Source: Silvanigrellaceae bacterium (GTDB lineage Bacteria; Bdellovibrionota_B; Oligoflexia; Silvanigrellales; Silvanigrellaceae). Taken from it: a DNA stretch of 17,793 bases. Location: NCBI GenBank assembly GCA_049423385.1, contig JBMSQQ010000069.1, positions 1-17,793 of the forward strand, written 5' to 3'. Below the pieces are notes generated by a model. That model was not told where the DNA came from. It did not search any database and worked only from the letters and a program-made list of their open reading frames with translations. The translations under genes and the position numbers were made by a program. Below, in pieces: positions 1,293 to 17,542 of the stretch (positions are counted from its first letter, which is position 1; every line of letters starts with the position of its first letter).

Positions 1293-2581
1293 GCAGCAAG
1301 ACCCCAAAAGATCTTTTGTGGATCGTTCCGCGTCTTCCATGGCCGCCCCGCTGCGGGGCGAGCTACGCCAATTGTGAACTCGTGCGTGCCATGGCCGACA
1401 GGGGGCATCGCATTCAACTCATTTGCTGGTCAAATGAAACTGTTGAAGTTGTTCCACCCGAAGCCCAGCGCCAACTGGGAGTCGAATCCATTTTTGTTCT
1501 ACAATGGCCCCTGTTGCTCAGAAACAAGTGGACACGACTGCTCATCAGCTTCGGCCTTCAGTGCCTGAGGCGCAAAATACCGTTGAGTGTCCTTCCCTTC
1601 ACGGCCGGAAGATTCAGAGAAAGATTGAATCAATTTTTGTCGAGGCATCCTTTCACCACCATCATTTGGGATGGACTTCACCCGATGGTGATTGCTCCCG
1701 ATAAAAAACCAAACGATTCAAAAAGAATAAACATCTACAGAGCCCACAACATCGAAGCATCCATCTGGCGTGGATTTGGGCGAGCACTGCCGTGGCCATT
1801 CGGGCATGTCTTTCAATGGCAAATCAAAAAAATGGACACCTTTGAACGCGCATGCATGACGTATTCGTCCGGCATTGCATTCGTGCAAGCCGACGATGAG
1901 TTTTGGTTCAAAAGCAATGTGAGCCAATCTGCTCAGACACAATTGGTTCCCATCTCCGTGGGCATCCCTGCTGACACCGCGGCCTGGCAGATTGCACGTT
2001 GGAGAAATGCACAAAGAGAAAGGAACGATGACAAGGGCATCTCACTTTTGTGGATTGGCGGCCTCGACTGGTGGCCAAACAAGCAAGCGATAGAATGGTT
2101 TTTGAAAAACATTTGGAAAAACGTCACAAGAATCAGACCAAACGCTCGCCTGACGCTGGTTGGAAAAGGAACAGAGCGACTCGACACTGTCCAGTTCAAC
2201 AACATCAATGTCTTTGGTTTTACCCAAGATCTCTCGCTGGTTTTAAACAATGCAGACCTCCTGATTGTTCCCATTCAGTCGGGCGGCGGGATGCGCGTCA
2301 AAGCTCTCGAGGCGCTATCAAGAGGTGTGCCCTGCATTGGCACACCCTTGGGAATATCGGGCCTTCCAAAGGAAGGACTCTATATTTGCAATGACGAACA
2401 CGAGTGGATCCGGGTGATCTCGAACGCCACGCCCGAGGAGTGCTTTATTCGCGGAATGATGGGATTTCGCGCGGTTCAGAGTCAATTCGATCGGGCTGCG
2501 AGTGCGCAGCGACTGGATGAACTGATTGAGAAATGCGAAAAGGTCTCATCCACTCCAAAAATGCATCACAGCACAACCTGA
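1289..2581 (+). CDS. Glycosyltransferase family 4 (GT-B), 430 aa
   Basis: ATG at 1289 overlaps the upstream TGA (ATGA). Motifs: LLWIVPRLPWPPRCGA, YRAHNIEASIW, WIGGLDWWPNKQAIEWF, VPIQSGGGMRVKALEALSRGVPCIGT. The 1022 start in the ORF track lies inside the upstream gene. Confidence 0.92.
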   Translation: MSSKTPKDLLWIVPRLPWPPRCGASYANCELVRAMADRGHRIQLICWSNETVEVVPPEAQRQLGVESIFVLQWPLLLRNKWTRLLISFGLQCLRRKIPLSVLPFTAGRFRERLNQFLSRHPFTTIIWDGLHPMVIAPDKKPNDSKRINIYRAHNIEASIWRGFGRALPWPFGHVFQWQIKKMDTFERACMTYSSGIAFVQADDEFWFKSNVSQSAQTQLVPISVGIPADTAAWQIARWRNAQRERNDDKGISLLWIGGLDWWPNKQAIEWFLKNIWKNVTRIRPNARLTLVGKGTERLDTVQFNNINVFGFTQDLSLVLNNADLLIVPIQSGGGMRVKALEALSRGVPCIGTPLGISGLPKEGLYICNDEHEWIRVISNATPEECFIRGMMGFRAVQSQFDRAASAQRLDELIEKCEKVSSTPKMHHSTT

Positions 2582-4361
2582 GTTGCTCAAATTCCCTGAC
2601 AGCAGCACCGGGAGGCAGCAAGAAAGGGTCGCGAATATCCTCGCTGCTGAGCGAATGCGCAAATTCTGCAACGAGAACACATTTTTTCAAGTACTTCAGC
2701 CCAAAGGTCCGAACGACTCGAAGCAAATGCGACTTCTCCATCAGGACAACAATATCGGCATTGTCCAAATCATGTTCGGAAAGTTGTTGTGCCCGATGCT
2801 CTTCGGGCGCAAAACCGTGATGGCGAAACAGCGAATGAAATCTTTTCGGAACACTTTTGTCTTCCACCTGAAGACCGCGCGATAGTGTCGAGAATGTTGA
2901 CCCCTGCAATTTGTCCCGCAAATACATTTCCGCAAACGGACTTCTGCAGCGATTGCCCAAACACACGAAAAGTAACTGCACCTTGCGTGGGTGAACGATT
3001 TGAAGTTCTCGTAACCCACTTGTTCCGCGTATCAGGGTCAAAAGCGATGTTGCGCATTCCGACGCGCGAACCACCACCCGACTCCAAAGTGCCACTGCAG
3101 TCACTTGGGTAAAGCGCATCCATTGCCTAACGCAAGGACGCACGTCGTCCGAGGCAAAGAAATCAAAGCGCATGGCAGGGTGAATCAAGACGTTGAAACT
3201 GGCCACCAAAAAGCGCACGGCGCGCTGAAGCGTCAGCTCGCCATTGACCAGCGATCTTATCACCGATGAAAGGTGCTGAACCTCGCCAGGGTAGATATTG
3301 GTGCAATAAAGATGCTTGGCAAAGACGGCATTGAAGTCCATCAACCCGGCGGCCTGACTCGGATGCGCCGCAGTGAGCGCATAGGAACGAAGAGGAGAAC
3401 TGGACGGTTGAAGTCCAGCCAGCTTTGCCCACTGAGAGACGAAAGCAAAACCTGCGTGATTCGCGAGGGCCAAAGATCCCCACGGCCGGGCGTTCAATTC
3501 AACAAAAAGAACATCGCCTGCACCTTGAACATCTTGCGCAAGTGCGGAAGATCTGCGGAACTCAATCATCGCCATTCCAGTGTGACTCAGTCCCGCCAGA
3601 AAAACCTCTGCTGCTCGGCGAAGACCCAGGTCGAATGTCAATCGCTTGCGCGCACTCACGCCACCGCTCCATGGAATCTCGGCCAATCTTTCGTGTGTGT
3701 GCCACAGACGCACGTCGCCATCCACCATCAAAAAGAATGCACCGCAACCGCTTCCATCGAAGAAATCCTGCAACAAATAGGAAACTCCTGAGTTCTGCAA
3801 TTCTTCATGCAACGCATGCAATTCCTGTTGCGATTGCACAACCCAATTCCGCCCTTTGCAGTAGCGATCACCATCCCAATGGTTATCAGTGCGAACGATC
3901 TGTTTGCCTTCGGAAAAAGAACGCGTGGGTGCCGGATCGTTCTGGCCAATCACGACACCATCTGCCACCCGCAGACCCAATTTCCTGGCACGATGGAAGG
4001 ATTCGATCTTGCTCAATCCATAAAAAAGAACTCTTTCACCGGCGCAAAGAAGTTGAATTGAAGGTGGTAATTCAGAACGCCATCTCATGACAGCGGCAAT
4101 GGTCGACTCGCTCACGGGCAGTATCGCATCTGCTCCCACACTCAACGCAAAAGAGACGATCTCAGCCAAGGCTTGTTGAGGATTCCACCACGGACTCACA
4201 ATCGCACGGTAGCTCTTCACATACCCGCTCGCAGAAGCGGGTGAACTGCGTTCAACACCGCAGACAAATACATCATACCCCGCACGTCCCAAATCTCGGA
4301 CACACGCCAAGGCGGCCAGGGAGTCACCGTCTGTCACGAGGATTCTCGCAGGTCTATTCAT
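2445..4361 (-). CDS. ATP-grasp amide-ligase-like domain fused to a C-terminal low-molecular-weight protein tyrosine phosphatase (LMW-PTP/ArsC fold), 638 aa
   Basis: ATG at 4361 overlaps the deacetylase stop (ATGA). ATP-grasp region: ILVTDGDSLAALACVRDLGRAG, YLLQDFFDG, PWSGGVS, GMAMIEFR, VELNARPWGSLALANHAG. Phosphatase region: P-loop FVCLGNRCRSPFAE (C-X5-R-S at 2940-2963), ADIVVLMEKSH, DIRDPF. Confidence 0.88.
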   Translation of the reverse strand: MNRPARILVTDGDSLAALACVRDLGRAGYDVFVCGVERSSPASASGYVKSYRAIVSPWWNPQQALAEIVSFALSVGADAILPVSESTIAAVMRWRSELPPSIQLLCAGERVLFYGLSKIESFHRARKLGLRVADGVVIGQNDPAPTRSFSEGKQIVRTDNHWDGDRYCKGRNWVVQSQQELHALHEELQNSGVSYLLQDFFDGSGCGAFFLMVDGDVRLWHTHERLAEIPWSGGVSARKRLTFDLGLRRAAEVFLAGLSHTGMAMIEFRRSSALAQDVQGAGDVLFVELNARPWGSLALANHAGFAFVSQWAKLAGLQPSSSPLRSYALTAAHPSQAAGLMDFNAVFAKHLYCTNIYPGEVQHLSSVIRSLVNGELTLQRAVRFLVASFNVLIHPAMRFDFFASDDVRPCVRQWMRFTQVTAVALWSRVVVRASECATSLLTLIRGTSGLRELQIVHPRKVQLLFVCLGNRCRSPFAEMYLRDKLQGSTFSTLSRGLQVEDKSVPKRFHSLFRHHGFAPEEHRAQQLSEHDLDNADIVVLMEKSHLLRVVRTFGLKYLKKCVLVAEFAHSLSSEDIRDPFLLPPGAAVREFEQLRLCCDAFLEWMRPFRISQSVHPVAAHSQPDRIDSEPREIPSFRE

Positions 4362-5296
4362 AGGAATCGGCTCACAAGATTCCATTTTCTCGAGCTCAGA
4401 AGCTCACCCACATCCGTCTGAGGCCCGACGCAAAATCTTCTGAGCGCGTAGGGCTCGGAGCAGTGCCGATTCCACCCGGCAATGGTTGTGACCGCAGAAT
4501 CTACGCCATGCTCCCGCAAAAGATGCGCACATCGCCGACCAAAGTCACCGGACTGACCATTCGGATAGGCGTAATGCAATGGCCTCACACCAAAGACATC
4601 CCTCAGGAAGCCGACGCTCTCGGCAATTTCCTTTTTCAACTCGACCTGGGTCAATTTCGAGTGAATGGAATGGTTAGCCGAATGGGCGCCAAAGGAGAAA
4701 ACGCCAGACGAACGCGCAGCCAGGCACTCGCCAACATTTGCTAGTCGGCGCTCGCGATGCACAGGGATTGCATCAACCTGCAGTGCCAACTGAAGATTGT
4801 TGAGCAACTCAGATATGGCATCTGGATGCAGCTTCTTCAGAAAACTCTGCAGTTTCCTGTTGGCTGCCGCCTTTTGACTGTCAGAGCCAAGAGGAATATG
4901 TCGACCCAGAAAATCGAAGCCCTCAAGCTTCGTTGAGGAAATCAGTTCAATGACTTGGGTAAACCAAGGATTCAACTCTTCCCTCGACAAACGCGTGGGC
5001 AAGAAAACAGTTGCCTGCGCAGAGTGTTTCTTGAGAACGGGTTCGGCCATCGCCAATGAAGCGGCGAAACCGTCATCAAACGTGAGCGATACCGACGGAG
5101 CCGAAAGCTTGCCCAGCCTGAGCAACTCGACCGCCCTATCCAAATCCAAAAATCTCCAACCAAGGTCGGCCACTTTTTTCAAGTCGGATGAAAATTTATC
5201 AGCCGAGACAAAGCAAAAATCATTCAAATGCTCTGAACTGTTCTGTGTGAGTCCATGGTAGCAGAGAATCACAAGTGGAGGCTTATGAATCAACAT
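4358..5296 (-). CDS. Polysaccharide deacetylase (CE4/NodB homology), 312 aa
   Basis: ATG at 5296 has GAGGAG upstream and overlaps the previous gene by 7 bp. Motifs: VILCYHG, SLTFDDGF, ATVFLPT, FGAHSANH, YAYPNG, YALRRF. No N-terminal signal peptide is evident. Confidence 0.92.
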   Translation of the reverse strand: MLIHKPPLVILCYHGLTQNSSEHLNDFCFVSADKFSSDLKKVADLGWRFLDLDRAVELLRLGKLSAPSVSLTFDDGFAASLAMAEPVLKKHSAQATVFLPTRLSREELNPWFTQVIELISSTKLEGFDFLGRHIPLGSDSQKAAANRKLQSFLKKLHPDAISELLNNLQLALQVDAIPVHRERRLANVGECLAARSSGVFSFGAHSANHSIHSKLTQVELKKEIAESVGFLRDVFGVRPLHYAYPNGQSGDFGRRCAHLLREHGVDSAVTTIAGWNRHCSEPYALRRFCVGPQTDVGELLSSRKWNLVSRFL

Positions 5297-7572
5297 CTTT
5301 CTGCTCCTCTCTTCATTCCCTTCAAAACTCCAAACAGGGTCGCCGGTGGAATCACGGTTGGGATTAGAACAACCGCAGCAGCACTCAAAACCAGCCAATC
5401 CGGCAAGACAAAAATTGGCGCAATCATCTTCAATATAAAGACGCACAAAACGACGCAAATGATGTTTATCTGCACAGATTGTGCTGGAACAATCCAAGAA
5501 ATCCTGAGGCCACTCCGAACAACATCGGAAAGCAAAAATCCGATACGGCTCAATGCCGCAGCAAAAACTCCCCCCGCAACCGCACCTGCAACACCGTGCC
5601 AGGAAAATCCGGCAGCAACAGAAGAAATGCTCAGCAAAGCCGAGGCAATGGAAAAGAACAAGATGCGCCTCGAGCTCCCCTGAGCCCGCGAAAGCGCATC
5701 GGGTGGAATGCAATTCAGCGCGTTTGCAAGTGCGAATATTCGCATCACGCCCGATGCTTCCTGATAGCGATCCGCAAAAAGCAACGACAAAATCTCGGGT
5801 GCAAAAAGCATCAAGGTCGCAGTCCACGGAACTGCAAACCTGGCAATTTTTCCGATGCACTCCCTGATGATCGCTGCACACCGTCGCGATTCACCATTTT
5901 GCAAAGAGAAAGCGATCTCCTGCAAGCGATGTTGCATGACCGATTGTTCCAGGAGATTCGCCAGCGGAAAGGAAAGTGTTCCGGCTGCAACCAACGAAAA
6001 CTCCGTTGGCGACAACCTGTGAAGCAGAAAAAATCGATCAAAGGTGGATGCAAAAACGGCCAGTGCTGCCGAAACACCCACAGGCCATGCAGACCTCAAT
6101 ATCGAGACTCCATGCACAAAAGATGATCGCGAAAAGGGTCTGCACTTCACGTCCCGGTTCAGCAACTTCAAGGCAACCAGCCGCACCATCAGAAATGCCG
6201 GAATCACAAAAAGGACATCCAACAAAGATTGTTGTAAAAAAATCAGCGCGAACATTGTCGCAATCTTGGCAAATTCACAGATTCCAACAATGCATGCAGC
6301 CAACAATCCCCTTCCACGCACGTTGAAGTGCTGCTCGAGAAAAACACATGGCAAAAGAGCCCCGGCTGAGAGTGCCAGAATGATGTTGATGTTGCCTTCT
6401 GGAATGGCATCAAGGGGGCCCCAGGCAAAAACGCTCATTGCGCAGATCACTGCGGCCACACACTGAAGGTGCCAGGCGGTTGAAACCATCTGCACACCGT
6501 GCTCACGATTGAGCTTCCACCAAGGGATGAGGCTCCAGAGTCCAGACGTCAAACTCAAAGCAGCGACGGACGAAAGATACAAACCAAAGCTGCGAAACTG
6601 TCCAAACTCATCCTTGTTTAACAAACGTCCCAGCGCTATCGGCACGGCCATGTTCAAGATTGCGACCGCTGCCTGCACAACAGCCTGATTCGCCGAATCG
6701 CTCTCCAATTTTCGAATTCGGCGCATCACCTTGGAAATCACCCAGTCGCCCAACATCCAAAGCATCGACAATGTCCACAGCGGAAAGAGGGCAGGATTTC
6801 GACAAACAATGGCCAGTCCGCCGGCACCCATCACGCGCAATCCTGTCCACTTGAGAAGAGGCGCGAAGGCATCCGCCGCCAGCGAGCTTTCTTGTTGCTG
6901 TCGCCAGCTATAGGTCGGCGTCATGGAAAGTGTGATGGGGGAGCGGGTCACCAGTCTCATCAGAAATTCCATGTCTTCGCAACGCCAGAGAGATTCCTTA
7001 AAACCTCCAAGAGCCTCGAAAAGCGATTTTCGAATCACAAGCCCCGAAGGCTGAAGAAAGTTGCCAAAAAGCGCCTGAGTTTCTGCATTCCCGTGCCAAA
7101 AATCACGATTGTTCCGAGGACAAAAGAGGAACGAAAAAAGCCTGGAAGACGATCGAAACGCAGGAAATGCTCCGACAAATCCTTGCCGCCCGGACTGCGG
7201 ATTCAGAGCGGCATCGGTGATGTTGAAGTTGCTGATGACCACATCGGAACCTTGCTGTGATTCAAGGATTCGCAAAACGTTTGCGATGTGTTGCGGATGC
7301 CAGACATCATCCGAGTCCAAAAATGCAATCCACTTTCCGTGTGCAAAAAAGGCGCCAAGGTTTCTTGCGGCCGATGGTCCTGCGCGAAAGGTGGACAGCA
7401 AAACAATGTCGTTCTGATTCTTACACCATTCGTGCGTTCCGTCGGTGGAACCATCATCCACAACAATCAGTTCGTGCACCGAAGTGGCTTGGCTTCTCAC
7501 CGATTCGATCGCCAATTTCAACATCGGAAGGCGATTCCAGGTGGGAACCACAACAGAGACTTCGGCAATCAT
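5290..7572 (-). CDS. GT2 (GT-A) glycosyltransferase fused to a Wzx/MOP-superfamily oligosaccharide flippase, 760 aa
   Basis: ATG at 7572 overlaps the upstream stop (ATGA). Residues 1 to ~280: VSVVVPTWNR, VVDDGSTDGT, GPSAARNLG, IAFLDSDD, CEDMEF. Residues ~283-760: multi-TM region with flippase-like segments PIALGRLLNKDEFGQF, STFDRFFL, LFAPEILSLLFADRYQEASGVMRIFAL. Confidence 0.85.
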   Translation of the reverse strand: MIAEVSVVVPTWNRLPMLKLAIESVRSQATSVHELIVVDDGSTDGTHEWCKNQNDIVLLSTFRAGPSAARNLGAFFAHGKWIAFLDSDDVWHPQHIANVLRILESQQGSDVVISNFNITDAALNPQSGRQGFVGAFPAFRSSSRLFSFLFCPRNNRDFWHGNAETQALFGNFLQPSGLVIRKSLFEALGGFKESLWRCEDMEFLMRLVTRSPITLSMTPTYSWRQQQESSLAADAFAPLLKWTGLRVMGAGGLAIVCRNPALFPLWTLSMLWMLGDWVISKVMRRIRKLESDSANQAVVQAAVAILNMAVPIALGRLLNKDEFGQFRSFGLYLSSVAALSLTSGLWSLIPWWKLNREHGVQMVSTAWHLQCVAAVICAMSVFAWGPLDAIPEGNINIILALSAGALLPCVFLEQHFNVRGRGLLAACIVGICEFAKIATMFALIFLQQSLLDVLFVIPAFLMVRLVALKLLNRDVKCRPFSRSSFVHGVSILRSAWPVGVSAALAVFASTFDRFFLLHRLSPTEFSLVAAGTLSFPLANLLEQSVMQHRLQEIAFSLQNGESRRCAAIIRECIGKIARFAVPWTATLMLFAPEILSLLFADRYQEASGVMRIFALANALNCIPPDALSRAQGSSRRILFFSIASALLSISSVAAGFSWHGVAGAVAGGVFAAALSRIGFLLSDVVRSGLRISWIVPAQSVQINIICVVLCVFILKMIAPIFVLPDWLVLSAAAVVLIPTVIPPATLFGVLKGMKRGAERC

Positions 7573-10400
7573 GGACGCACCAGCCCCGAGGATTCCGCCA
7601 CGTCCAAAAGACACGCTGCGAGCTGATCCCTGGCAAGGTCGTAGTCGGCTGAATTTCGACTCCAATGTGTGGCGCTGACCACCGCATTGAATCTTGCTTT
7701 CACGCTTTCAAAGCATTCGGGATTGTGTTTTTTGGCCAGCAATAGATATTCGGCATCAAAGGACGCCTGTCGCCAGTATTTCAGGCGCAGGGAAGGCACA
7801 GGGACGTGATCCGAAAGTCCATGTTCACCAGGACGGCCCGGATAAAAAAGTGTTCCATCGCCGTTTCCGCTGAAGTCCCAAACGTTTTCCCAAACATTTG
7901 TCGTCTTGGCCTTTCGCCAGATGTTGTTGACGCTGTAATAAAGTATGCGCTTCAGGCCATAGTGGCTTGCCATCCATGGCCACACACGTATGTAGGAAGC
8001 ATTTCTTTCAATCACAAAGTCGGGCTCACCGCTCGACCTGTCGTTGCCACAGCCATGGCTCATGCAGCTCACATACGCCCACAGCTCATTGTCGGGACCA
8101 AGATCAGGTGGACCTTCACGGTCCAAAATCTGAAGCAATGGAGCAAAGATTTGAATGGAATCCACAAGACTCTGCCACGGATAAATCGTAACCAAGGATG
8201 AAACAGAAGGTGAGCCAAGCCTGAGACTTTCGGCAACTTCGCTCAAAGACAAAAGATCTTCCTGGGTGGGCTCATCCCAAAGGTAAACAATCGGATCTTT
8301 CGCCATGCGTCTTTGCAACTCTGCCTCTTTCAAGTCTTCTGCCGAGCCATCCAAAAATTCCTGCCAGCGCCTCCAGTAGCGAAGCCTTTCAGCAGGTTCC
8401 TTGCTGTCGATGCGTGGAAGATCGACAGCAGCCCAGTGCGGGAGCTCGCTCACCACCGTGTCGCCATAAGACATTCCAGGTTGAGGATCCCGGCTCAGCA
8501 AAAAGCTCCCGCTCAGCTGTTCTTCCAGTTTCTTGAACGGATGTTTGATCCAAGCCTTGAGCGGCAGAACGCGGTGCTGGACCATCGAACGCACATATGC
8601 GCGCGTCAGCGGGCCTTCCTGCTCGGTCGACTTGCCAAAATGCGCCAATGAGGCAAACCAAGGGGTAAATTCCGAAGACAACGGCAACGCCCATGGCTCA
8701 GACATGCGATAGGGCAAAACCATCAAATGGAACCGCCAGCGCCGGAACCCTGTTGGCAACTGTTCTCCATTTTCTGGTGGATGCATTGCACTTTCAATTG
8801 TGAAGGTGGTCTTGCCCGGGGGTGAATCCGGATCAATTGTCAAATCTGCAAACAGCCAGTCGACTTTCCCACCCTCCAAGGGCACGCAATCAATGGCGCG
8901 ATTCACGGGAACCAGAGCATCAATATAATTGCCCGTTTTCGCACCTTCATATGAGGGATTTCGAACAGAAATCGACAGTCCGCGATACCATTGCAAGTTG
9001 GGCTTGTGCGCTTCATTCGCACCGACAAGCTTGGGCAGCGACCCGCAGAATCCTTCATTTTTAAGAGTCAACAGGCGAGTCTCACCGGGAAACACAAATA
9101 CATCGAATTCCTCTGCGTAGCTTTCGCTTTGAAGATATTCGGGTCGCTCAAGGGCAAGCGTCAGACTCTGCTGTGCGTGGGCAATCGACGAAGAAGAAAG
9201 CAGGACAACGGGCAGCACCACCAACGCGAGCGAACGAACGGCGTTTGCAATGACACCCTCGGCAGCGTGATAAACATCTTTGTATTTGTTGACCATGGCC
9301 GCAAGACCAAATTGTCGGCGAAAGGCATCTCGATGCAGCCAGTCATTGAAGCGCTCATACGGAGTTGCAGAACCATGTTCCTTGAGGAATCCGGCAAGGC
9401 ATTGCTGATCGTCTTGCATGGTCGTGGCAAATGGCATCAGTGCCCGGTGCCCTTCGATGTCTGAGATCAAAACCGGCAAACCAGCACCCACTGCTTCGCA
9501 CGCAGCCAAAGGCATTCCTTCCTGCTCCGACAGAGAGACAAAAGCGTCTGCCGCAAAATGCCAAAGCTCGGGAAACGCCGTGGGACCAACAAACACTGGA
9601 GAAGGCAATTCCTCGTTGGCGGCAGAGAGCAAGGGATCCAGGGCACGCTTGAAAAACGAAGAATCCACAGGCCCCACTATCAACAAACACCAATTTTCCC
9701 TGAGCGACTGGGGCAGATGCAGCCACATTTCCAACAGACGTTCTATTCCCTTTCCCTGAACAACCCGACCCAGAGCCATCAGCCAGCGCTTGCTGGAGGC
9801 AGCCTCAACCGTGACCCTCAGTTCCTTCGACATGCGATCCATCAGCCAGCGTCGGGCGCGGCCTTTCTCAATGAAATTCTCAGCAAACGAGACACCATTG
9901 GGAAGTGTGATCAATTTCCGGGAATTGATCCCCAGAGCGCGATATGTCTCGGCCAGCCCTTCCGAAACCGTGCAGACCTTTTTGGCAAAGGCAGTAAAGA
10001 TTCGTTCATAAAGGGCGTATCTCTTCTTGCCCTTTCGAAAATGAACGAAGCTGTGCTGGGTGTGAACAAGACGAATCCGAAACGCGGATAAAACCACAAC
10101 CATTGCGCCGTAGATCAAGGCACCCAAATCGTGACTGTGAATGATGTCGATTTGCCGCGCCCGTGCCATTTTCGAAATGCGCAACAGGGTTCCAAAACAA
10201 AATCCTGGCCGCTTCTGCATAAGGACGATTTCCACACCGGCGGATTCAAGTTCACCCACAAGCCGTGCATCCACGCCAGCTGTCTCGTAAGCCACAACGC
10301 AACACTCAACGCCCTCGCGAGATAACCCACGGGCCAATGAAACCATCATTCTCTCGAGCCCACCCAGGGCAAGATATTGGCTCAACAACAAAACATTCAT
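7569..10400 (-). CDS. GT4 glycosyltransferase fused via a signal-peptide-like segment to a DUF4091/GH123-like glycoside hydrolase domain, 943 aa
   Basis: ATG at 10400 has GAGGT upstream and an ATGA overlap. GT4 region: LGGLERM, DIIHSH, LVHTQH, LPNGV, LGRVVQGKG and the EX7E motif EGMPLAACE. Residues ~389-409 are RSLALVVLPVVLLSSSSIAHA. C-terminal region: YLWDEP, WAYVSCMSHGC, GNGDGTLFYPG, PSLRLKYWRQASFDAEYL, which resemble DUF4091 proteins. Confidence 0.82.
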   Translation of the reverse strand: MNVLLLSQYLALGGLERMMVSLARGLSREGVECCVVAYETAGVDARLVGELESAGVEIVLMQKRPGFCFGTLLRISKMARARQIDIIHSHDLGALIYGAMVVVLSAFRIRLVHTQHSFVHFRKGKKRYALYERIFTAFAKKVCTVSEGLAETYRALGINSRKLITLPNGVSFAENFIEKGRARRWLMDRMSKELRVTVEAASSKRWLMALGRVVQGKGIERLLEMWLHLPQSLRENWCLLIVGPVDSSFFKRALDPLLSAANEELPSPVFVGPTAFPELWHFAADAFVSLSEQEGMPLAACEAVGAGLPVLISDIEGHRALMPFATTMQDDQQCLAGFLKEHGSATPYERFNDWLHRDAFRRQFGLAAMVNKYKDVYHAAEGVIANAVRSLALVVLPVVLLSSSSIAHAQQSLTLALERPEYLQSESYAEEFDVFVFPGETRLLTLKNEGFCGSLPKLVGANEAHKPNLQWYRGLSISVRNPSYEGAKTGNYIDALVPVNRAIDCVPLEGGKVDWLFADLTIDPDSPPGKTTFTIESAMHPPENGEQLPTGFRRWRFHLMVLPYRMSEPWALPLSSEFTPWFASLAHFGKSTEQEGPLTRAYVRSMVQHRVLPLKAWIKHPFKKLEEQLSGSFLLSRDPQPGMSYGDTVVSELPHWAAVDLPRIDSKEPAERLRYWRRWQEFLDGSAEDLKEAELQRRMAKDPIVYLWDEPTQEDLLSLSEVAESLRLGSPSVSSLVTIYPWQSLVDSIQIFAPLLQILDREGPPDLGPDNELWAYVSCMSHGCGNDRSSGEPDFVIERNASYIRVWPWMASHYGLKRILYYSVNNIWRKAKTTNVWENVWDFSGNGDGTLFYPGRPGEHGLSDHVPVPSLRLKYWRQASFDAEYLLLAKKHNPECFESVKARFNAVVSATHWSRNSADYDLARDQLAACLLDVAESSGLVRP

Positions 10401-11146
10401 GCCAAAACCTCGCGCTCAACAAGTCGTCGAACGACGCGCGCAGGATTGCCGGCGATAATGCTTCTTGGAGGATATTCACCACTGGTCACCACACTACCAC
10501 TGGCGACAATGCAACCGTCTCCCACACGAGCACCCTTGAGAATTGTGCAATTTGCACCCAGCCAAACATCGTCACCTATGAGCACCGGATCAGTCGGTGC
10601 AATCCAGCGGGTCTCGCTCTCCTGTTCAGAAAGCTCCTGGGTGTCGCCAAACTTTGGGTAAAACTTTCGGCAAATCGACTTCACCTGTTCGCCCCGCAGG
10701 GAAGGGTCAAGCGGATGAGGATCGTTGTCCTGGATAAAGACATTCCAGCTGGTCAGAACCCGATTGCCTATAACAACCAACTCACGCGCCGATATCCTGC
10801 AGTCGCCAATCACCCCGCACTGGCCAATGCGAATGCAGCCATGACCCAATGCCTCCAGACGTGAATGTTCGTATAGAATAGAGTCATCGCCAATTTCGAT
10901 GCGGGAGTGACTTCCAATTCTCACCAACGACCGCAGCCGCTGGATGCGTACATTCCGACCCAACAGAAGACCTTTTCTATGGAGAGGTGAAATTCTCATC
11001 ACAAGATTGCTGATCCAAAACATGAGAAAATTTCTGGTCATGGCTGGAACGAGCAAAAGATGGCTACGGATGGCTCTGCCGACAAGGTCGAAAAAAGTTC
11101 TGGCCTGATGAAATCTTTTGCCGACTTTTTTTTCAGTCAACTCCAT
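10397..11146 (-). CDS. Hexapeptide-repeat (left-handed beta-helix) O-acyltransferase, maltose/galactoside acetyltransferase-like, 249 aa
   Basis: ATG at 11146 follows GAGGAGGACGAGGTGAG and overlaps the GT2 gene by 10 bp. Motifs: IEIGDDSIL, VVIGNRVLTSWNVFIQDNDPHPLD, PVLIGDDVWLGANCTILKGARVGDGCIVASGSVVT, IIAGNPARVVR. Confidence 0.92.
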   Translation of the reverse strand: MELTEKKVGKRFHQARTFFDLVGRAIRSHLLLVPAMTRNFLMFWISNLVMRISPLHRKGLLLGRNVRIQRLRSLVRIGSHSRIEIGDDSILYEHSRLEALGHGCIRIGQCGVIGDCRISARELVVIGNRVLTSWNVFIQDNDPHPLDPSLRGEQVKSICRKFYPKFGDTQELSEQESETRWIAPTDPVLIGDDVWLGANCTILKGARVGDGCIVASGSVVTSGEYPPRSIIAGNPARVVRRLVEREVLA

Positions 11147-12261
11147 CTCACCTCGTCCTCCTCGTTTCGACCTCGGCCCAGGAAAGTCCTGATCGCCAAC
11201 CACGACGCAGCAAATGCCGGCTGCCGCGACAGGGCAATCACCGGGACGACAGACACAATCAGGGTCACCAATGCAAATGCCGGGTTCCGAGTCAGAATGG
11301 TGTATTCCCACGCCGCGATATTCATCGACGCAATCAAAGACAAAGGAATCACGCACCAGAACAACCGAACCGCACGTCTGAGGGAAATCAAGAGTACAAG
11401 TGGACTCCATTCCCACATGACGGGTACAAGGTGACCGATCCATTGAAGGTTTCCACGCGCAATTCTTTTTCTTGCAAAAACCTCTGCCGGACCCAGACGC
11501 AGCGAAGTGTCCTGAACAGAAAATCCACCCTCTTGATTCTGTGCATAAACGATTCTTTTTTCAGGCGAGACAATGCGCAGGGCCATTGGAATCACCACAT
11601 CGTCGTTGATCCACTCCCGCCCTTCCAAAAGTGTCAGTGCCTCGAGAAGGTCCTTCCTTCGATAAAAGACTGTTGCGCCATGTACAGAAACAGGACCCCC
11701 GGATTTGTTTTCAAGACATTTCAAAAACGCCTCAAGTCGCCAGTAGGCTCGTGCAAGCAGACCAGCATTGAGTGTTTGATAGCGCGGGGCAACGCACATG
11801 TTTTCGGCGCGTTCAAACAGGGGATGACAATTGCGCAATAAACGCGGATCCCAAACGGTTCCTGCATCAACCAACGCAACCCAGTCGGCTGTGCTTGCCG
11901 AAACAAGACTGCGCAGAACCTTCCACTTTGACTTGTATGAAAAGGCCATGGCTTTCAGCCGGAATCCATGAGTATCGAGAACTGTGTTGTCGGAACAAGC
12001 GTCAAGACCCACACTCACGTTCACATTGAGATCCGGAAACAATCTGTTTGCATTCCGGATCGCCGTGACAACCGATTTCAGGGTTTCTCTCAGCCTTCCT
12101 TCTTCATTGTGGCAAGGAATAAGCACATCCAGAGAATGAACTTGTTCCAAAACTTCGTCCGTCGGGTTTCTTCCGCGAACAAACAATTGCGAGATGATCG
12201 GAAAAAAGAAGACAGCAAGAAGCAAGACAAAGAACCCAATCAGGAAGGACATCCACCACAT
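11137..12261 (-). CDS. Membrane-anchored GT2 glycosyltransferase (CESA-like subgroup), 374 aa
   Basis: GGAGG ribosome-binding site before ATG 12261. N-terminal TM helix, then VLIPCHNEE, LDACSDNT, ALVDAG, VHGATVFYRR, INDDVVIP, RKRIARGNLQ and C-terminal TM helices. Confidence 0.9.
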   Translation of the reverse strand: MWWMSFLIGFFVLLLAVFFFPIISQLFVRGRNPTDEVLEQVHSLDVLIPCHNEEGRLRETLKSVVTAIRNANRLFPDLNVNVSVGLDACSDNTVLDTHGFRLKAMAFSYKSKWKVLRSLVSASTADWVALVDAGTVWDPRLLRNCHPLFERAENMCVAPRYQTLNAGLLARAYWRLEAFLKCLENKSGGPVSVHGATVFYRRKDLLEALTLLEGREWINDDVVIPMALRIVSPEKRIVYAQNQEGGFSVQDTSLRLGPAEVFARKRIARGNLQWIGHLVPVMWEWSPLVLLISLRRAVRLFWCVIPLSLIASMNIAAWEYTILTRNPAFALVTLIVSVVPVIALSRQPAFAASWLAIRTFLGRGRNEEDEVRWS

Positions 12262-12320
12262 GGAACCTCCAGCATGTTCGTTTGAGCTGTTCTCAAGTCA
12301 GTTTCATTGGCTTTTTTCGT

Positions 12321-13553
12321 CTATTTCCTTTTCATCCGAATCGGATAGTGAGCGCCTGTGAAGGTTGAAAGGCCCCATCCTCGAATCTCGCATCGGCCCC
12401 AAGGGTTCCTTTCAGCGAGCAGCCTCCAACCCAAAGGGACGTTCATCTGCATGTTGATGAAGGTCAGACGGCCTGAATGTTCGTTGTATCTGCCAAACGA
12501 AAACGGCAGACGCAGGACCCCCTCGTCGCTAGCAAAGACTGCAGCAAGTTGACGCGGCCCGATTCGCTCAATTGTGAACTGACCCTCAAGGTCAGCCAGA
12601 CTCATTCGATAGTTGCCCAGCAGTTCCTCTTCAGTGCAAGGCTTGTTGCTTACGACGTCTACTTTAATCAGACGGCGAGCCTTGATGTGGATTTTTTTGA
12701 ATTCGAGCGGATCAAGCATGGTTCCTTCCACGCTTGAAAAGCTTTCATCGAATTTGAGTTGAAGGACCGAGGGCACTGCAGATCCAAACGACTGTCTGCT
12801 GCCGAGCCACTGGGGACTTTCGTTGAAGGAGAGCTTTTGAAAAGTTGTTGGTCTCAGGGTGGGGTGACTCAAAGAAGCCACAACACCGAGGTCTCCACCC
12901 GTGGAGAACAACACCAGACGAAGGTTTTCAACGTCTTCACTCAAAGGCCCGTCAATGCTGGTCAGAAGAAAAACACCTTCCCAACCATCGACCACCTCAA
13001 GAAGTTGCGTCGATAGAGCACTACCTAGCTGAAGCGCCTGCCGTGCAACGTAATCGGCATCTTTGAGATCCATGCTGACGGCTTCTGCATTGCGGGCAAA
13101 GCAAACCAGCTCCTTGATGGCCTGGTGATCCTGAAGAGCCTCAACTCTCCGCAAAAAGAAGTCGAGCGCCGCGAAACGTTGGGATTCTCCTGCCAACTCG
13201 GAATAACCGCTGCTCAGCCGCTTGCAGTCGCGCCAGACCCACTGCACCAACAAAAACACGCTCTGGTCGCGCAATGCCTTGGTTTCGCGTAGCACGTAAT
13301 CTTCATCATTCACCTTCTGAACCAGCTCAACAGCTGCGCGGGCAAATTCAAGAAGATTGTTGAGCTTGGCCTCGGCCTTCTCCCTTGAGAATTCTTGCCT
13401 GAGTTTGCTGACCAGCTGAAACCTATAGGATTGGTTCTTGCTCTCCATGGTCTTCAGCTCGGCTGCGACGTCGCAAATAGGTAAATCGCAGCCCAGGGCT
13501 GTCGCTGTGAACATCAGACCCGGGAGTGCAGCACAGAGCGCGACCAGCCTCAT
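12321..13553 (-). CDS. Secreted hypothetical protein with an internal helical repeat, 410 aa
   Basis: GAGGT ribosome-binding site before ATG 13553. Signal-peptide-like N-terminus MRLVALCAALPGLMFTATALG followed by CDLPIC. Long ORF filling the gap between the kinase and GT2 genes. No family recognised. Confidence 0.8.
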   Translation of the reverse strand: MRLVALCAALPGLMFTATALGCDLPICDVAAELKTMESKNQSYRFQLVSKLRQEFSREKAEAKLNNLLEFARAAVELVQKVNDEDYVLRETKALRDQSVFLLVQWVWRDCKRLSSGYSELAGESQRFAALDFFLRRVEALQDHQAIKELVCFARNAEAVSMDLKDADYVARQALQLGSALSTQLLEVVDGWEGVFLLTSIDGPLSEDVENLRLVLFSTGGDLGVVASLSHPTLRPTTFQKLSFNESPQWLGSRQSFGSAVPSVLQLKFDESFSSVEGTMLDPLEFKKIHIKARRLIKVDVVSNKPCTEEELLGNYRMSLADLEGQFTIERIGPRQLAAVFASDEGVLRLPFSFGRYNEHSGRLTFINMQMNVPLGWRLLAERNPWGRCEIRGWGLSTFTGAHYPIRMKRK

Positions 13554-13752
13554 AGATACCTCGACTGCATTCGATCGTGGATCAACCAGGCACTTTTCAC
13601 AGAAGACTCGCTGCAAATTCTGCGAACTCGTTTAGATCTTGTCTTGGGGCAAAACTTTTCTCTTCGAACGGATGTGACGGCCAGACCGCAGGACTGCAAG
13701 GCGACCGACGAAAATGATTATTCGACAAGCTGCTTCGATTTCGAAGTGCTCT

Positions 13753-16185
13753 CTAAGTCGAATTCTGAATCGCCGAGAGAATGTCCTCCCAACTCGCATT
13801 TTTTTCCAACCGAGCGCTTATGCCTGCCGAACGCAGGCTCTGCTCAGAAATCTCTGCATCGGTCAGCAAAACGATGGGACGTGAATATTCCAATGCACGA
13901 AGGTCTGCAGCCAGTCGAAGACCTGTGAATTCGCTACCGGCGGCAAAATAATGATCTGTGATCACCAAATCATATTGCGAAAGCGCATTGGGATTGTCGT
14001 GCAATTTTTCAAGCCATACCTGAGGCGAAGAATGGCTTTCCACTTCAGCTCGACCCTTCAATCGCGATTTGAAGACATAGAGCATGAATTCCGAATCATC
14101 GATGTGGGCAACCCTGAGTTTTCGCGCACTGCTTGACTGGACTTCTCCAGACTTGATGGTCTTCGCTCCCAACGCCTCTGCCAACAGCTTGATGAGATGA
14201 CTGCGCCCCATCGGCTTTGGCAAAATGATATCAGCACCGGCAGCGACTGCAGCCTTGTTGTCCCGGGCGGAGAGCCTGTTGGAATGAACGCAAACGAGTC
14301 CCTGAAAACCTGCCGCGCGTGTCCGACGGATGAGCTCGAATCCATCCACTTCGCCCGCACCAAGGTCGAGATCCAGGATCAAAAGTCGCACTCCAGACAA
14401 ATGCTCCACCAATCCTTCAATGCTCATCTTTTGCAGGGTTTTGAAATTCAATCTGGCTGAGACATCAGGCAACGATGCCATGATGCCGAGAAGGCTGTCG
14501 AGGTAAACCTGTTCATCATCCACGGCAAGAACAACCGGCGGTTCAGTGCCCGCAAGCAAACGTTCCTGAATCTTTTCGATAAGCCGCGAGTCGTCCTCAT
14601 AGACATTCTCCCCTGAAGACTGCGCAGCTGGCTTTATGATGCTGACGAACTCTTTTGAATGAAAGGGCAAAGCTTTTGCTGCATCCAAGTCTTGCTCTGA
14701 AGAAATCGGGAGAGTGAACACGAACTCGACTTTACCTTTTGGAAAATGAACATTCTTGAAAGACTCACAGCGAATCTGTCCGCCATGCAGCTCGACAATC
14801 TTCTTGACGATGGCAAGTCCAAGGCCCGTGCCCCCTTCCTTGTTCGCGGTGTAGAAAAGATCAAACAGTCGTTGTCGGGCATCCTCAGTGATGAAAGATC
14901 CAGAATTGGAAATACATATTTCCAGCTTTTCAGAAGTTTCATTCGTGCTGATGGAAATTTGATCACCATCGGGCATCGCCTGTATGGCGTTCTCGAGGAT
15001 ATTCAAAATAACTCGACCCATATGAACCGAGTCAACCAACACCTTTTTTCGATGTGAAAAATTATAATTCAAGAGGATATGACGCTCAGGATAAAGACCA
15101 AATGCCTCACGCAACGAATCTCCCACAAGCGTCCGCACCGACAGTGGCGCAGTGTTGAGCTTCGTTTCGCCACCCATCTGCATCACGTCGCGAATCATCA
15201 CATCGACTTTCTTCATTGCCAGGTTTATTTCGGGAATGGCACGAAAGAATATCTCGCGAGCCTGCACAATGTCGGATGTCGACTGGACCGCCTCAATCAA
15301 TGCCTTGAACATCGAAAACGGCTTGCGCACGTCGTGGGCAAAGGCCTGTGTCGATCGTGCAATCGCACCTTGTGCGGTAGACAATTCAAGAACATCCAAA
15401 TAACTCTGCAATGATGTTCGCAGTGACGAAAGCTCGAGAGTCTCTTCCTCGGCATTGGTGCGCAAAGATTCCCGCACTTTCTGAACCGCTTCGTCACTCG
15501 TCTCCTGAGCCTGACGCATCAACGCGGTCAGCCGGAGCAGAGGATTGACCTGCTGCCGGCTCGCGTAAAATACCGCAAGACCAGTTCCAACTGCAGCAAG
15601 CACACCAAAGCCAACAAATGCCAGGGTAAAGTTCAATGCTGTGTTGCGGGCACCTTGTGGTGCAATTGCCACCCTCAACTGAGCACAAGCTGACGACTGT
15701 TCCGGACACGACACCGGAAAACCCACCAGCAACACTTCATCGCCTGCCTGTAGTTTGACTTTGAACTTGGATGCCAGAACCTCATCCGCAATAAACGGCA
15801 AAGCCACCTGTTGCGTGAAGTCGATTGGCAATTCGGGCTCCCAAGATTGTTTTGCCTTGCCCACCTCGCCCGAATTGACTCCCTCGATGCCTACATCAAT
15901 GAGGCCATTGTTTCTGACGATGTAGCTGTAAATGATGTTGGGGCTTTCAGAAAGAAAGCGTTGTTGGGTTTCCAAATGAAGAAGATTGTCCTGCTGATAG
16001 AAATATCCCAGCGTCCAGGTTGTGAAGCGCTCTGCGTAACTTCGCGCTTCAGCAATAAGCTGCTTCTCCAAAAGGTTCTTTTGATAGACACCAAAAAATG
16101 ATGCGGAAAGGGTTATGAAGCCAGCACCAATCAGTGACGCAATGAGGGCTATCCGTCCGGGCAGAGATCGGGTCAGCATTTTCAT
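13753..16185 (-). CDS. Membrane-bound hybrid sensor histidine kinase with two C-terminal receiver domains, 810 aa
   Basis: ATG at 16185 overlaps the upstream stop (ATGA). Two TM helices flank an extracytoplasmic region of roughly 170 aa. H-box FAHDVRKPF, N-box LNILENAIQAM, F/G2 boxes FDLFYTANKEGGTGLGLAIV. REC1: AVDDE, LILDLDLG, HSN, PKP. REC2: HIDDS, VITDHYF, LLTD, EKN. Confidence 0.93.
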   Translation of the reverse strand: MKMLTRSLPGRIALIASLIGAGFITLSASFFGVYQKNLLEKQLIAEARSYAERFTTWTLGYFYQQDNLLHLETQQRFLSESPNIIYSYIVRNNGLIDVGIEGVNSGEVGKAKQSWEPELPIDFTQQVALPFIADEVLASKFKVKLQAGDEVLLVGFPVSCPEQSSACAQLRVAIAPQGARNTALNFTLAFVGFGVLAAVGTGLAVFYASRQQVNPLLRLTALMRQAQETSDEAVQKVRESLRTNAEEETLELSSLRTSLQSYLDVLELSTAQGAIARSTQAFAHDVRKPFSMFKALIEAVQSTSDIVQAREIFFRAIPEINLAMKKVDVMIRDVMQMGGETKLNTAPLSVRTLVGDSLREAFGLYPERHILLNYNFSHRKKVLVDSVHMGRVILNILENAIQAMPDGDQISISTNETSEKLEICISNSGSFITEDARQRLFDLFYTANKEGGTGLGLAIVKKIVELHGGQIRCESFKNVHFPKGKVEFVFTLPISSEQDLDAAKALPFHSKEFVSIIKPAAQSSGENVYEDDSRLIEKIQERLLAGTEPPVVLAVDDEQVYLDSLLGIMASLPDVSARLNFKTLQKMSIEGLVEHLSGVRLLILDLDLGAGEVDGFELIRRTRAAGFQGLVCVHSNRLSARDNKAAVAAGADIILPKPMGRSHLIKLLAEALGAKTIKSGEVQSSSARKLRVAHIDDSEFMLYVFKSRLKGRAEVESHSSPQVWLEKLHDNPNALSQYDLVITDHYFAAGSEFTGLRLAADLRALEYSRPIVLLTDAEISEQSLRSAGISARLEKNASWEDILSAIQNST

Positions 16186-17213
16186 TCTTCGCGCAAGCCC
16201 CTCACAAAATAACTGCACTCCTGTTTTCCGTCGTTCTGGCACAGCTGATACGGACCACCCAACTCATTCGGGATGTCCTTTCCGGCGAATCCGCGCACCA
16301 ACTCATAGCGAGCAGGCTCCGATAGAGTTTGGGTCTGTCCGGTCATGTATTCCACAACCAATTTCTTTCTTGATGTTTGCGCTTTTTCGGATTTTGCTGA
16401 CTTTTCAGACTTTTGAGACTCAAGCGCCAAGACTTTCGAGACTGGACAATACAACAGCTCTCCCATGTTGGCCCGCGGAGGCTCCTTCTTCCTTCGCCCT
16501 CGCGGATAGTTCAATTTTCCAGTTTTCTTGTCGCTGCAAAGAGAGCCAACCTTGTTGCCATTCAAGGTCTGGCCATTGACCTCAAGATTGAGGTCGGGCT
16601 TGCCAATAAAAATTGCAGATACCCACCATGCCCACCATGATTGTTCCGAGAGATATGAAGCCTTCGAATGGTTGAGAAATGCTAAAAAAGGAGCTCCCTT
16701 CCGCCAGTTGAGTCTCTGCCCCTTTTCAAATCCAACAATGACTGCCTGTGCCTTGATCACGTCTTCGAACGGGAGAGAAACAGAATAGCTGTCGCGGCCA
16801 ACGAAGGTGATCGTCTCGGCATTGAGAGACCCGAACTGTTCTTCTTTGATGCCTGAATGGAGGAGAAGATCACGAACCGTGATTCCAAAGAATTCAGACT
16901 CAACGTGTTGAGGATTGACCACGTCGTGGGGATGGTTCATGCGAAAAGACTTTTTTTGCAACAATTCATATGGTTTTTCGAGGTCAGTCTGTCGAGACAA
17001 TGCTCTTGTATTCACAGAAATCCAGATTCGGGTGACGTCCCTGGTTTCCGATGAACTGGCGTTCAGATTCTGCTGAAAGCCAAGCAGACACGCCAAAGCG
17101 ATGAACAAACGGAAAGAAGATCCCAGCCTCATGCAGGAGCAATGGATTTCTGAATTTTCACGCGATATCAAAACACCTGGAACGTCATTCAACTTTTCAT
17201 CTTTTGCCTGCAT
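16182..17213 (-). CDS. Exported protein with degenerate molybdopterin-oxidoreductase (SUOX/MsrP-like, PruR-like) domain(s); alternative start at 17132
   Basis: Hydrophobic segment FRLFIALACLLGF followed by QQNLNA. Then the pattern EFFGITVRDLLLHSG, ITFVGRDSYSVSLPFEDV, IVGFEKGQRLNWRKGAPF, WWAWWVSAIFI. A weaker second copy near the C-terminus: GKDIPNELGGPYQL, YFVRGL. GGAAGAG lies upstream of ATG 17213. Confidence 0.7.
   Translation of the reverse strand: MQAKDEKLNDVPGVLISRENSEIHCSCMRLGSSFRLFIALACLLGFQQNLNASSSETRDVTRIWISVNTRALSRQTDLEKPYELLQKKSFRMNHPHDVVNPQHVESEFFGITVRDLLLHSGIKEEQFGSLNAETITFVGRDSYSVSLPFEDVIKAQAVIVGFEKGQRLNWRKGAPFLAFLNHSKASYLSEQSWWAWWVSAIFIGKPDLNLEVNGQTLNGNKVGSLCSDKKTGKLNYPRGRRKKEPPRANMGELLYCPVSKVLALESQKSEKSAKSEKAQTSRKKLVVEYMTGQTQTLSEPARYELVRGFAGKDIPNELGGPYQLCQNDGKQECSYFVRGLREE
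16380..16415 (-). repeat. Imperfect 9-bp tandem repeat, four copies, encoding QKS-EKS-AKS-EKA
   Basis: Minus strand reads CAAAAGTCT GAAAAGTCA GCAAAATCC GAAAAAGCG. Confidence 0.6.
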
Positions 17214-17252
17214 TACATGCTCTTCCCAAAAAAAACCGACTGGGAGTCCCTG

Positions 17253-17282
17253 AATTTAGAAGCACTATCTCACAATTGCCAA
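17253..17282 (-). promoter_or_regulatory. Candidate sigma70-type promoter for the PruR-like/kinase pair
   Basis: Minus strand TTGGCA-N18-TAAATT, about 40 bp upstream of ATG 17213, in an AT-rich divergent intergenic region. Motif match only. Confidence 0.25.
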
Positions 17283-17513
17283 ATATTCTGAACCTCAGAA
17301 AAATTAATCCGGCCAGTGAAGATGTAAAAACCAAAAAAGGCAATCATTGAATAGCCTTTAAAATCCTCTTCTGGCTCCCAACGGAGACTAAAAATATGCT
17401 GCGAATTGATAGGATCTCGCGCATGCAAAGCAGATATCCCAGACTGAAATCGACGCGGATTGCCACAAAATCAGTCTTCCTCGCCATGCTGTCAAAAAGA
17501 ATGGCATCACAGT

Positions 17514-17542
17514 TCTACATCCACGAAAACTTCACATATTAT
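17514..17542 (+). promoter_or_regulatory. Candidate sigma70-type promoter for the divergent lipoprotein gene
   Basis: TCTACA-N17-TATTAT, about 30 bp upstream of ATG 17574. Motif match only. Confidence 0.3.

Follow-up and report, generated by a model that had tools for sequence, protein, structure and literature searches.

PruR mediates a pterin signalling that was recently defined as a control of bacterial biofilm and adhesion. In Agrobacterium tumefaciens, PruR binds the periplasmic domain of DcpA, an interaction that is stimulated by pterin, and the system controls an adhesive polysaccharide (PMC11194511). Binding of reduced pterins, for example tetrahydromonapterin, counts among the traits of the PruR family (Greenwich et al. 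2024). The pteridine ring is held between Y104 and W160 and receives a hydrogen bond from N102, while W70 of a PW motif replaces the cysteine that ligates molybdenum, and the hairpin that would bear this cysteine is truncated (PMC11194511). The present analysis concerns a pair of genes in a stretch of 17,793 nucleotides from a Silvanigrellaceae bacterium (assembly GCA_049423385.1, contig JBMSQQ010000069.1), hereafter the window. The first gene encodes an exported protein of the SUOX fold related to PruR, and the second a hybrid sensor histidine kinase (Table 1). The two genes form a real, conserved module, which varies the known theme of PruR and a sensor and does not point to a new principle.

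The output of DcpA is a GGDEF-EAL region, and its periplasmic domain is predicted to be a four-helix bundle with an invariant WX7E motif (PMC11194511). PruR-type modules with a phosphorelay output have already been published as well, under the name PruR-DTB, where a TorS/BaeS-like kinase lies behind a DcpA-type periplasmic domain (PMC11194511, PMC13259868). These make up 23% of more than 5,500 PruR-linked gene pairs, and ~29% of the unique sequences (PMC11194511). The first-pass annotation of the window had proposed that its pair is a sensing module analogous to PruR-DcpA with a phosphorelay output instead of cyclic di-GMP. The hybrid kinase partner agrees with this proposal, but the idea itself is not new (PMC11194511, PMC13259868). 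PruR signalling has so far been described only in combination with a periplasmic domain of the DcpA type, in Alpha-, Beta-, Gamma-, and Deltaproteobacteria. The accessible content of the three supplementary files of PMC11194511 did not contain the names Silvanigrell-, Oligoflex-, Bdellovibrio, Fluviispira, or Pseudobacteriovorax, and neither a PruR-like protein in tandem form nor a partner of the Cache type was found described in the accessible literature on PruR and pterin-binding SUOX proteins.

The features noticed in the first-pass annotation were all recovered at the positions given there. The translation of the first gene contains the motifs FFGITVRDLL, RDSYSVSLP, GQRLNWRKGAP, and WWVSAI, its stop overlaps the ATG of a kinase with two transmembrane segments, and both genes are co-oriented with polysaccharide genes, since every gene from 2445 to 17213 lies on the minus strand. 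The protein has a single N-terminal hydrophobic segment (residues 32–48) followed by NLNA/SS, which gives it a signal-peptide-like N-terminus, and the use of Met28 as an alternative start would produce a classical signal peptide. Cysteines occur only at positions 25, 27, 42, 226, 256, 325, and 333, and consequently the first domain (residues 43–225) is free of them, including the part before FFGITV for which their absence had been noted. A search of the 343-residue protein against NCBIfam gave no match.

A word-indexed search with this protein returned four relatives with 36–78% identity among 1,251 candidates, and these five sequences were combined into a profile (A1). The exhaustive search with A1 reached 72 representatives at E<=1e-3, 41 at <=1e-10, and 8 at <=1e-30, most of them 278–345 residues long and aligned across both halves. 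The existence of relatives at 30–78% identity, together with this family of 72 representative clusters, shows that the gene is real and not a chance open reading frame (ORF). A larger alignment (A2) holds 43 sequences, which are the window protein, P0003, and 41 of the first 48 profile matches. P0002, P0017, P0030, P0039, P0040, P0044, P0045, and P0046 were left out as shorter than 240 residues, and all matches ranked after P0051 as weaker. In a word-indexed search, the A2 profile found at least seven proteins.

The relation to PruR emerges from this larger family. Against the sequences of the PDB, the A2 profile matched the PruR entries at E 4.8e-11 (7kos/7kou), 7.1e-10 (7kp2), 1.2e-9 (7kom), and 1.1e-6 (7rkb). 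The five-sequence profile A1 matched nothing there at E<=10, and a phmmer search with the single window sequence gave only a spurious uS12m match (E 0.19), so PruR is reached by A2 only. The confident AlphaFold2 model of the protein built on A2 (mean predicted local distance difference test (pLDDT) 88.7; predicted template-modelling score (pTM) 0.83) leads to the same relatives, with PruR entries at ranks 1, 2, 3, 6, and 7 of the Foldseek search against the PDB (7kom, 7kp2, 7kou, 7rkb, and 7kos; E 6.6e-7 to 3.1e-5; template-modelling (TM) score by target 0.61–0.74; ~150 columns). On the basis of both the profile and the Foldseek matches, domain 1 is a PruR-type SUOX fold, beyond a generic SUOX likeness, and PruR is the closest characterized relative of the protein by sequence profile and predicted fold. 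The fold proposed in the first-pass annotation is thus borne out. Of the two halves compared with it, the first is PruR-like and the second is a further, more degenerate SUOX copy.

Despite this relationship, the exported protein could in principle be a periplasmic enzyme of the SUOX/MsrP type, or a subunit of one, that uses molybdenum or another cofactor and has no tie to the kinase beyond a common operon, a reading that is highly improbable. It does share the fold of the molybdenum cofactor (Moco)-binding domain with the SUOX molybdoenzymes (sulfite oxidase/dehydrogenase, SoxCD, and YedY/MsrP). On its own, it matches PF00174 (Oxidored_molyb) just below the cut-off (E 8.3e-5; 22.7 bits, cut-off 24; residues 102–176 on profile positions 65–139 of 169), and 35 of the 43 A2 members match this family at E<=0.01 (best E 5.1e-13). 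One relative is named 'Oxidoreductase molybdopterin binding domain' in one source, and SUOX enzymes as well as YedY (E 5e-4, TM score 0.40) are found among the fold matches. However, the first domain holds no cysteine, nor is one conserved across the family at the position of the molybdenum ligand: within the 45 residues that precede G110, 38 of the 43 sequences lack any cysteine, and those of the other five share no column. In the profile search, sulfite:cytochrome c oxidoreductases follow PruR at E 0.06, a far weaker relation than the 1e-11 of PruR, which amounts to about nine orders of magnitude in favour of PruR over the sulfite dehydrogenases. SoxCD and the sulfite dehydrogenases/oxidases reach Foldseek E-values similar to those of PruR, but their whole-chain alignments are poor (root-mean-square deviation ~20 A, TM scores 0.21–0.30). 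Moreover, unlike these enzymes, the protein has no dimerisation or heme domain, its second domain being a SUOX-like copy and not an Ig-like Mo-co dimerisation domain, and no heme, cytochrome, or MsrQ-like partner gene was found in the window with Pfam and NCBIfam. The molybdoenzyme reading was rejected because of the cysteine-free first domain, the profile favouring PruR, and the poor alignments with SUOX enzymes, and the exported protein is most likely a SUOX-fold derivative that is catalytically dead and free of molybdenum.

Within domain 1, which carries P95-H96...N100-P101, D141, Y143, G173, and W194/W196, the A2 alignment to A. tumefaciens PruR places N83/Y85/W141 of the crystallized chain, equivalent to native N102/Y104/W160 (a constant offset of 19), on D141/Y143/W196. 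Two of the three residues that contact the pterin in PruR, Tyr and Trp, are therefore kept in the window protein. The Trp column is occupied by Trp in 43/43 sequences, and the Tyr column by Tyr in 40/43 and by Phe in 3/43, while column 141 holds Asp in 38/43 and Asn in 3/43.

The second domain carries the motifs YPRGRR and GGPYQLC and the cysteine pair C325/C333, and in the close subfamily also C226/C256. In isolation (residues 208–343) it was matched by no Pfam family, even with the threshold relaxed to E<=10. Nevertheless, an hhalign comparison between the N- and C-terminal halves of A2 gave a probability of 83.5% (E 8.4e-6, 109 columns), pairing PHxxxNP with YPxGxR and GGPQ with GGPxQLC. 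Its structural neighbours in the Atlas are clusters that carry PF00174 or bear the name molybdopterin-dependent oxidoreductase (TM score by query 0.59–0.64); the Atlas feature score for the domain (0.89) is a lead only. The hhalign result, the Atlas neighbours, and the conserved cysteine pair (C325 in 33/43 and C333 in 35/43 sequences of A2) point to an internal duplication that gave rise to a tandem protein. C325 and C333 plausibly form a periplasmic disulphide, and domain 2 may serve as an adaptor.

The stop codon of this gene and the start of the kinase gene share an ATGA (GAAGAATGAAAATG; TGA at 16182–16184, ATG at 16183–16185), an overlap that suggests translational coupling. The kinase consists of a first transmembrane helix, a periplasmic domain, a second transmembrane helix, the H-box and HATPase region, and two receiver domains, with its two hydrophobic segments at residues 8–33 and 182–209. 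The H-box is AHDVRKP, with H284 as the histidine, and H284-D-V-R-x-P is invariant among the relatives of the kinase, as are D696, D697, D744, and K795. Pfam recognizes HATPase_c at residues 385–494 (E 2.7e-22) and Response_reg in two stretches (E 1.6e-12), and many NCBIfam sensor-kinase models align at approximately residues 280–500. Judged by its sequence, the protein thus has the phospho-accepting histidine, the GHKL ATPase, and the receiver with an acceptor aspartate of a hybrid histidine kinase; no histidine phosphotransfer (HPt) domain was found in it. A word-indexed search with residues 1–235 returned only eight relatives (54–65% identity), all of which carry HATPase_c and seven of which carry a receiver domain.

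The periplasmic sensor domain contains an invariant FTTWTLGYFYQQDNLLHLETQQ block. As in the case of domain 2, a Pfam search of the isolated region at E<=10 gave nothing. Atlas features relate it to sCache_3_2 (score 0.96; 174 shared features; 63% of cluster members), and its Atlas structural neighbours include a single-Cache cluster (TM scores 0.72/0.61). AlphaFold2 modelled residues 30–190 with pLDDT 82.8 and pTM 0.78, confidently in two of five models only, as a long helix at the N-terminus, two short ones, and a sheet of five strands. The best PDB matches of this model in Foldseek are the extracellular domains of WalK/YycG (7dud, 5is1, and 4ywz; E 5.6e-6 to 1.1e-4; TM scores 0.63–0.73), after which KinD, Tlp3, and other Cache domains are ranked. 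According to these predictions, the domain is a WalK-like single Cache/PDC domain and not a four-helix bundle of the DcpA type, the contrast with DcpA being drawn between its published description and a predicted fold. The domain also has a W57-x7-Q65 motif that resembles WX7E with Glu changed to Gln despite the other predicted fold, which may be a coincidence or a remnant.

The resemblance to WalK raises the alternative that the Cache domain does the sensing and that the exported protein is an accessory or scaffold of the kinase without ligand sensing of its own, similar to the membrane accessory proteins by which WalK is controlled. The integrative WalK–YycH model 9a5d is among the Foldseek matches of the periplasmic domain, as are the ligand-bound Cache structures 4jgp, 4xmr, and 6w3r, all of which would suit a scaffold, as does the rank of WalK/YycG itself. 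On the other hand, the strict conservation of the PruR pocket residues is hard to explain without a ligand, and YycH and YycI are not known to be related in fold to the SUOX-like partner. A scaffold without ligand sensing is considered improbable.

That the two genes belong together is supported by their conservation. A scan of genome contigs with the A1 profile identified four related loci (L001–L004; 30–41% identity), from metagenome-assembled genomes (MAGs) labelled Pseudomonadota, uncultured Oligoflexia, Proteobacteria, and Silvanigrellales, the last of which is placed in Oligoflexia, Bdellovibrionota. In all four, the next gene starts within 0–4 nucleotides and encodes the same kinase N-terminus (47–64% identity), so the coupling noticed in the window holds in 4/4 related loci. 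Co-folding of residues 55–343 of the exported protein (A2) with residues 35–185 of the kinase (A4) gave a score of 0.02 (mark 0.32), which weighs neither way on binding.

Beside the pair, three of the four loci encode an NMT1/THI5-like binding protein (PF09084, E ~1e-30), with 76–78% identity between loci. Its gene lies directly upstream and co-oriented in L002 (8889–9926) and L003 (8757–9929), and beyond the kinase gene in L001 (5388–6101, minus strand). This protein may be a third component or have a function in ligand uptake. The truncated divergent gene of the window (17574–17792) has no similarity to the NMT1-like proteins of L001–L003. Other neighbours in the related loci encode a methyltransferase, a radical-SAM protein, a DEAD-box helicase, GSDH, and DUF4423, and the Silvanigrellales MAG holds a fragment of a Cas12f1-like/TnpB TNB protein (PF07282, E ~1e-9) upstream of its SUOX-like gene (L004, 3–434).

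The most favoured reading, held to be slightly more probable than not, takes the exported protein as a ligand-dependent co-sensor of the periplasm and the second gene product as its membrane kinase; the foremost candidate for the ligand is a pterin. The exported protein would bind a small planar heterocycle, such as a pterin, between Y143 and W196 of domain 1, where D141 would be the polar residue at the site at which PruR holds the pterin ring. Depending on the occupancy of this site, it would dock on the single-Cache periplasmic domain of the kinase, and the docking may shift, in one direction or the other, autophosphorylation at H284 and phosphotransfer to the two receivers.

A number of observations weigh against this model. 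The third pterin contact of PruR, Asn102, is an Asp in the window protein, a change that is also present in PruR groups C and D (PMC13259868). The PW motif with its W70 is absent from the A2 family, and P-H-x3-N-P is found in its place (P95 in 40/43, H96 in 29/43, N100 in 36/43, and P101 in 35/43 sequences); this loop aligns to PruR ambiguously and with a gap. Because of this replacement, the ligand pocket may differ from that of PruR. The pterin sensing proposed in the first-pass annotation thus gains from the retained Tyr/Trp sandwich and loses from these two changes, and pterin is kept here as a candidate. Regarding the kinase, Cache/PDC domains of other sensors bind small ligands directly, so that it might need no co-sensor. 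It has W57-x7-Q65 and no WX7E, with Q65 conserved in 9/9 kinases and the Trp changed to Phe in L004, and since the domain is not predicted to be a four-helix bundle either, the PruR-DcpA interface would not be simply transferable. Moreover, neither an HPt protein nor a response regulator with an output domain was found in the window with Pfam and NCBIfam, and no glycosyltransferase or polysaccharide gene lies beside the pair in the scanned ORFs of L001–L003. Finally, the count of pairings refers to the close subfamily (four loci), outside of which lie ~65 more distant clusters.

Some of the same evidence would also suit a functional pair whose ligand is not a pterin, but another heterocycle, a metal at the conserved His96, or a redox signal through the cysteine pairs. 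Apart from the family-specific P95/H96/N100/P101 in place of PW and the change from Asn to Asp, this alternative is favoured by the extra domain with its conserved C325 and C333, by the NMT1/THI5-like binding protein found beside the pair in most of the related loci, and by the lack of pterin-pathway genes in the window and in L001–L004. However, no feature of the family is better conserved than the Tyr/Trp sandwich, both profile and fold place PruR nearest among relatives, and pterin genes need no linkage, as pruA lies outside the two-gene pruR-dcpA operon in A. tumefaciens (PMC11194511). A ligand other than a pterin is therefore regarded as rather unlikely, and the ligand-dependent co-sensor with a candidate pterin remains the preferred model.

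Compared with PruR-DcpA, the pair shows clear similarities: an exported SUOX-fold protein without the molybdenum-ligand cysteine, with Tyr and Trp at the positions that stack on the pterin, is encoded directly upstream of, and coupled to, a sensor with two transmembrane segments and a periplasmic loop of ~150 residues. The differences, however, affect both partners. PruR consists almost wholly of a single SUOX fold with a signal peptide (Greenwich et al. 2024); its crystal chains hold 134–149 residues and the protein has a mass of ~16 kDa (PMC11194511), whereas the window protein has 343 residues and two SUOX-fold domains, lacks the PW motif, and has Asp instead of Asn102. Its partner has the output of a hybrid kinase where DcpA has GGDEF-EAL, and a predicted Cache/PDC domain without WX7E, and the lineage is that of Oligoflexia/Silvanigrellales. 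The analogy drawn in the first-pass annotation thus stands for the arrangement of the pair, while it fails for the type of partner domain and for a tandem protein without PW. With PruR-DTB, the pair shares a PruR-type gene upstream of a sensor histidine kinase, often with receiver domains, but the DcpA-like WX7E domain of those systems contrasts with the WalK-like single Cache with W-x7-Q and the tandem PruR-like protein found here. Since the PW motif, the single-domain size, and the DcpA-type partner domain are all missing, the pair is no member of PruR-DcpA or PruR-DTB as defined, but it is analogous to the published PruR-DTB systems.

In a broader sense, the pair resembles TorT-TorS, NspS-MbaA, and WalK with its accessory proteins, where a periplasmic or extracytoplasmic protein from a neighbouring gene acts as a modulator on the periplasmic domain of the sensor. 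Here, however, this partner is of the SUOX fold; it is not a Venus-flytrap solute-binding protein and is not known to be of the YycH/YycI type. The first two are discussed as binding-protein-dependent sensors in PMC11194511.

A further proposal, tentative and rather doubtful at present, is that the ~70 clusters at 50% identity form a distinct family of tandem Moco-less SUOX-fold periplasmic proteins, which arose by internal duplication of a PruR-like ancestor and was recruited independently to Cache hybrid kinases outside the classical Proteobacteria. If this were true, unrelated sensor folds could take up the PruR-type ligand module as a portable co-sensor, and a ligand other than the known pterins might be recognized through the P-H...N-P loop. 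A tandem PruR-derived protein with a Cache-type kinase in Oligoflexia would show that the ligand module is modular and more widely spread, and would offer a second, independent partner interface beside that of PruR-DcpA. In practical terms, the pair provides testable residues (D141, Y143, W196, and H96) and a defined kinase domain (residues 34–181).

Table 1. Positions of the gene pair, its domains, and the adjoining cluster in the window, and of the corresponding genes in the four related loci (numbered within each locus).
Feature	Position	Strand	Basis
Exported tandem SUOX/PruR-like protein gene, 343 aa	16182..17213	-	ORF, stop codon included
Domain 1, PruR-like Cys-free SUOX fold, ~residues 58-207	16593..17042	-	Family profile and Foldseek
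Domain 2, degenerate second SUOX-fold copy, ~residues 208-343	16185..16592	-	hhalign and Atlas structural neighbours
ATGA stop/start overlap of the two genes	16182..16185	-	Sequence read
Hybrid sensor histidine kinase gene, 810 aa	13753..16185	-	Pfam, NCBIfam, transmembrane segments, conservation
Kinase periplasmic sensor domain, ~residues 34-181, predicted WalK-like single Cache/PDC	15643..16086	-	AlphaFold2, Foldseek, Atlas
Polysaccharide biosynthesis cluster, co-oriented, adjoining the pair	2445..13616	-	Pfam and NCBIfam matches
L001, SUOX-like gene	2030..2959		
L001, next gene, 802-aa kinase	2960..5368		
L002, SUOX-like gene	9929..10906		
L002, next gene, 825-aa kinase	10907..13384		
L003, SUOX-like gene	9938..10882		
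L003, kinase, starting at a TAAATG junction, cut by contig end			
L004, SUOX-like gene	1038..1952		
L004, kinase, 4-nt overlap, cut by contig end	from 1949		

The polysaccharide cluster adjoining the pair encodes a lipoprotein-like protein, a family 2 glycosyltransferase (GT2), a hexapeptide acetyltransferase, a GT4 fusion, a GT2–flippase fusion, a polysaccharide deacetylase, and a fusion of an ATP-grasp-like region with a low-molecular-weight (LMW) protein tyrosine phosphatase. The kinase gene is separated from the next gene by a gap of 200 nucleotides without a terminator-like site, and co-transcription of the pair with the cluster is possible. A promoter and terminator scan of 12200–17793 gave counts at shuffle level (4 vs 3.5 and 8 vs 6.3). 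In the whole window, no Rfam family reached its gathering score, and none was found at E<=1 in 17100–17793, so there is no riboswitch in the leader. The cluster, proposed as a target locus by the first-pass annotation, indeed adjoins the pair and is a candidate target in this genome. This candidacy comes from the present window only, as polysaccharide genes adjoin the pair in no related locus, and the link between the pair and polysaccharide synthesis is weak.

Several products of the cluster are unusual in their own right. Between the kinase gene and the glycosyltransferases, a gene at 12321–13616 (minus strand) encodes a protein of 431 residues without a family match, which has a lipoprotein-like leader from Met22 (MRLVALCAALPGLMFTATALGC). 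The listed ORFs of the hexapeptide acetyltransferase (10397–11443) and the GT2 protein (11137–12261), both on the minus strand, overlap by ~300 nucleotides, and since the homology of the acetyltransferase begins near residue 164, its translation probably starts well downstream and not at the listed ATG. The 646-residue product of 2445–4385 (minus strand) is a fusion whose N-terminus weakly resembles PRK06849 (an ATP-grasp-type hypothetical protein, E 7e-9) and whose C-terminus is a Wzb-like LMW phosphotyrosine phosphatase (PF01451, E 2.7e-19); the window showed no tyrosine kinase of the Wzc type. Another unusual fusion, of 943 residues, is encoded at 7569–10400 (minus strand), with GT4 in residues 1–380, followed by ~560 residues that open with a hydrophobic stretch and have no Pfam or NCBIfam match. 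This protein matches the stp2 model, and a GT1 protein on the plus strand within 1–2581 matches the PEP-CTERM/XrtA-associated stp1 model TIGR03087 (E 8.4e-29, below the cut-off). In addition, the 5'-truncated ORF at 1–747 has a weak DUF5935 match, and the product of 5290–7665 (minus strand) is a GT2 protein fused to a Polysacc_synt_3 flippase-like domain. Taken together, the stp1/stp2 and DUF5935 matches and the GT2–flippase fusion hint at an exosortase-type exopolysaccharide locus.

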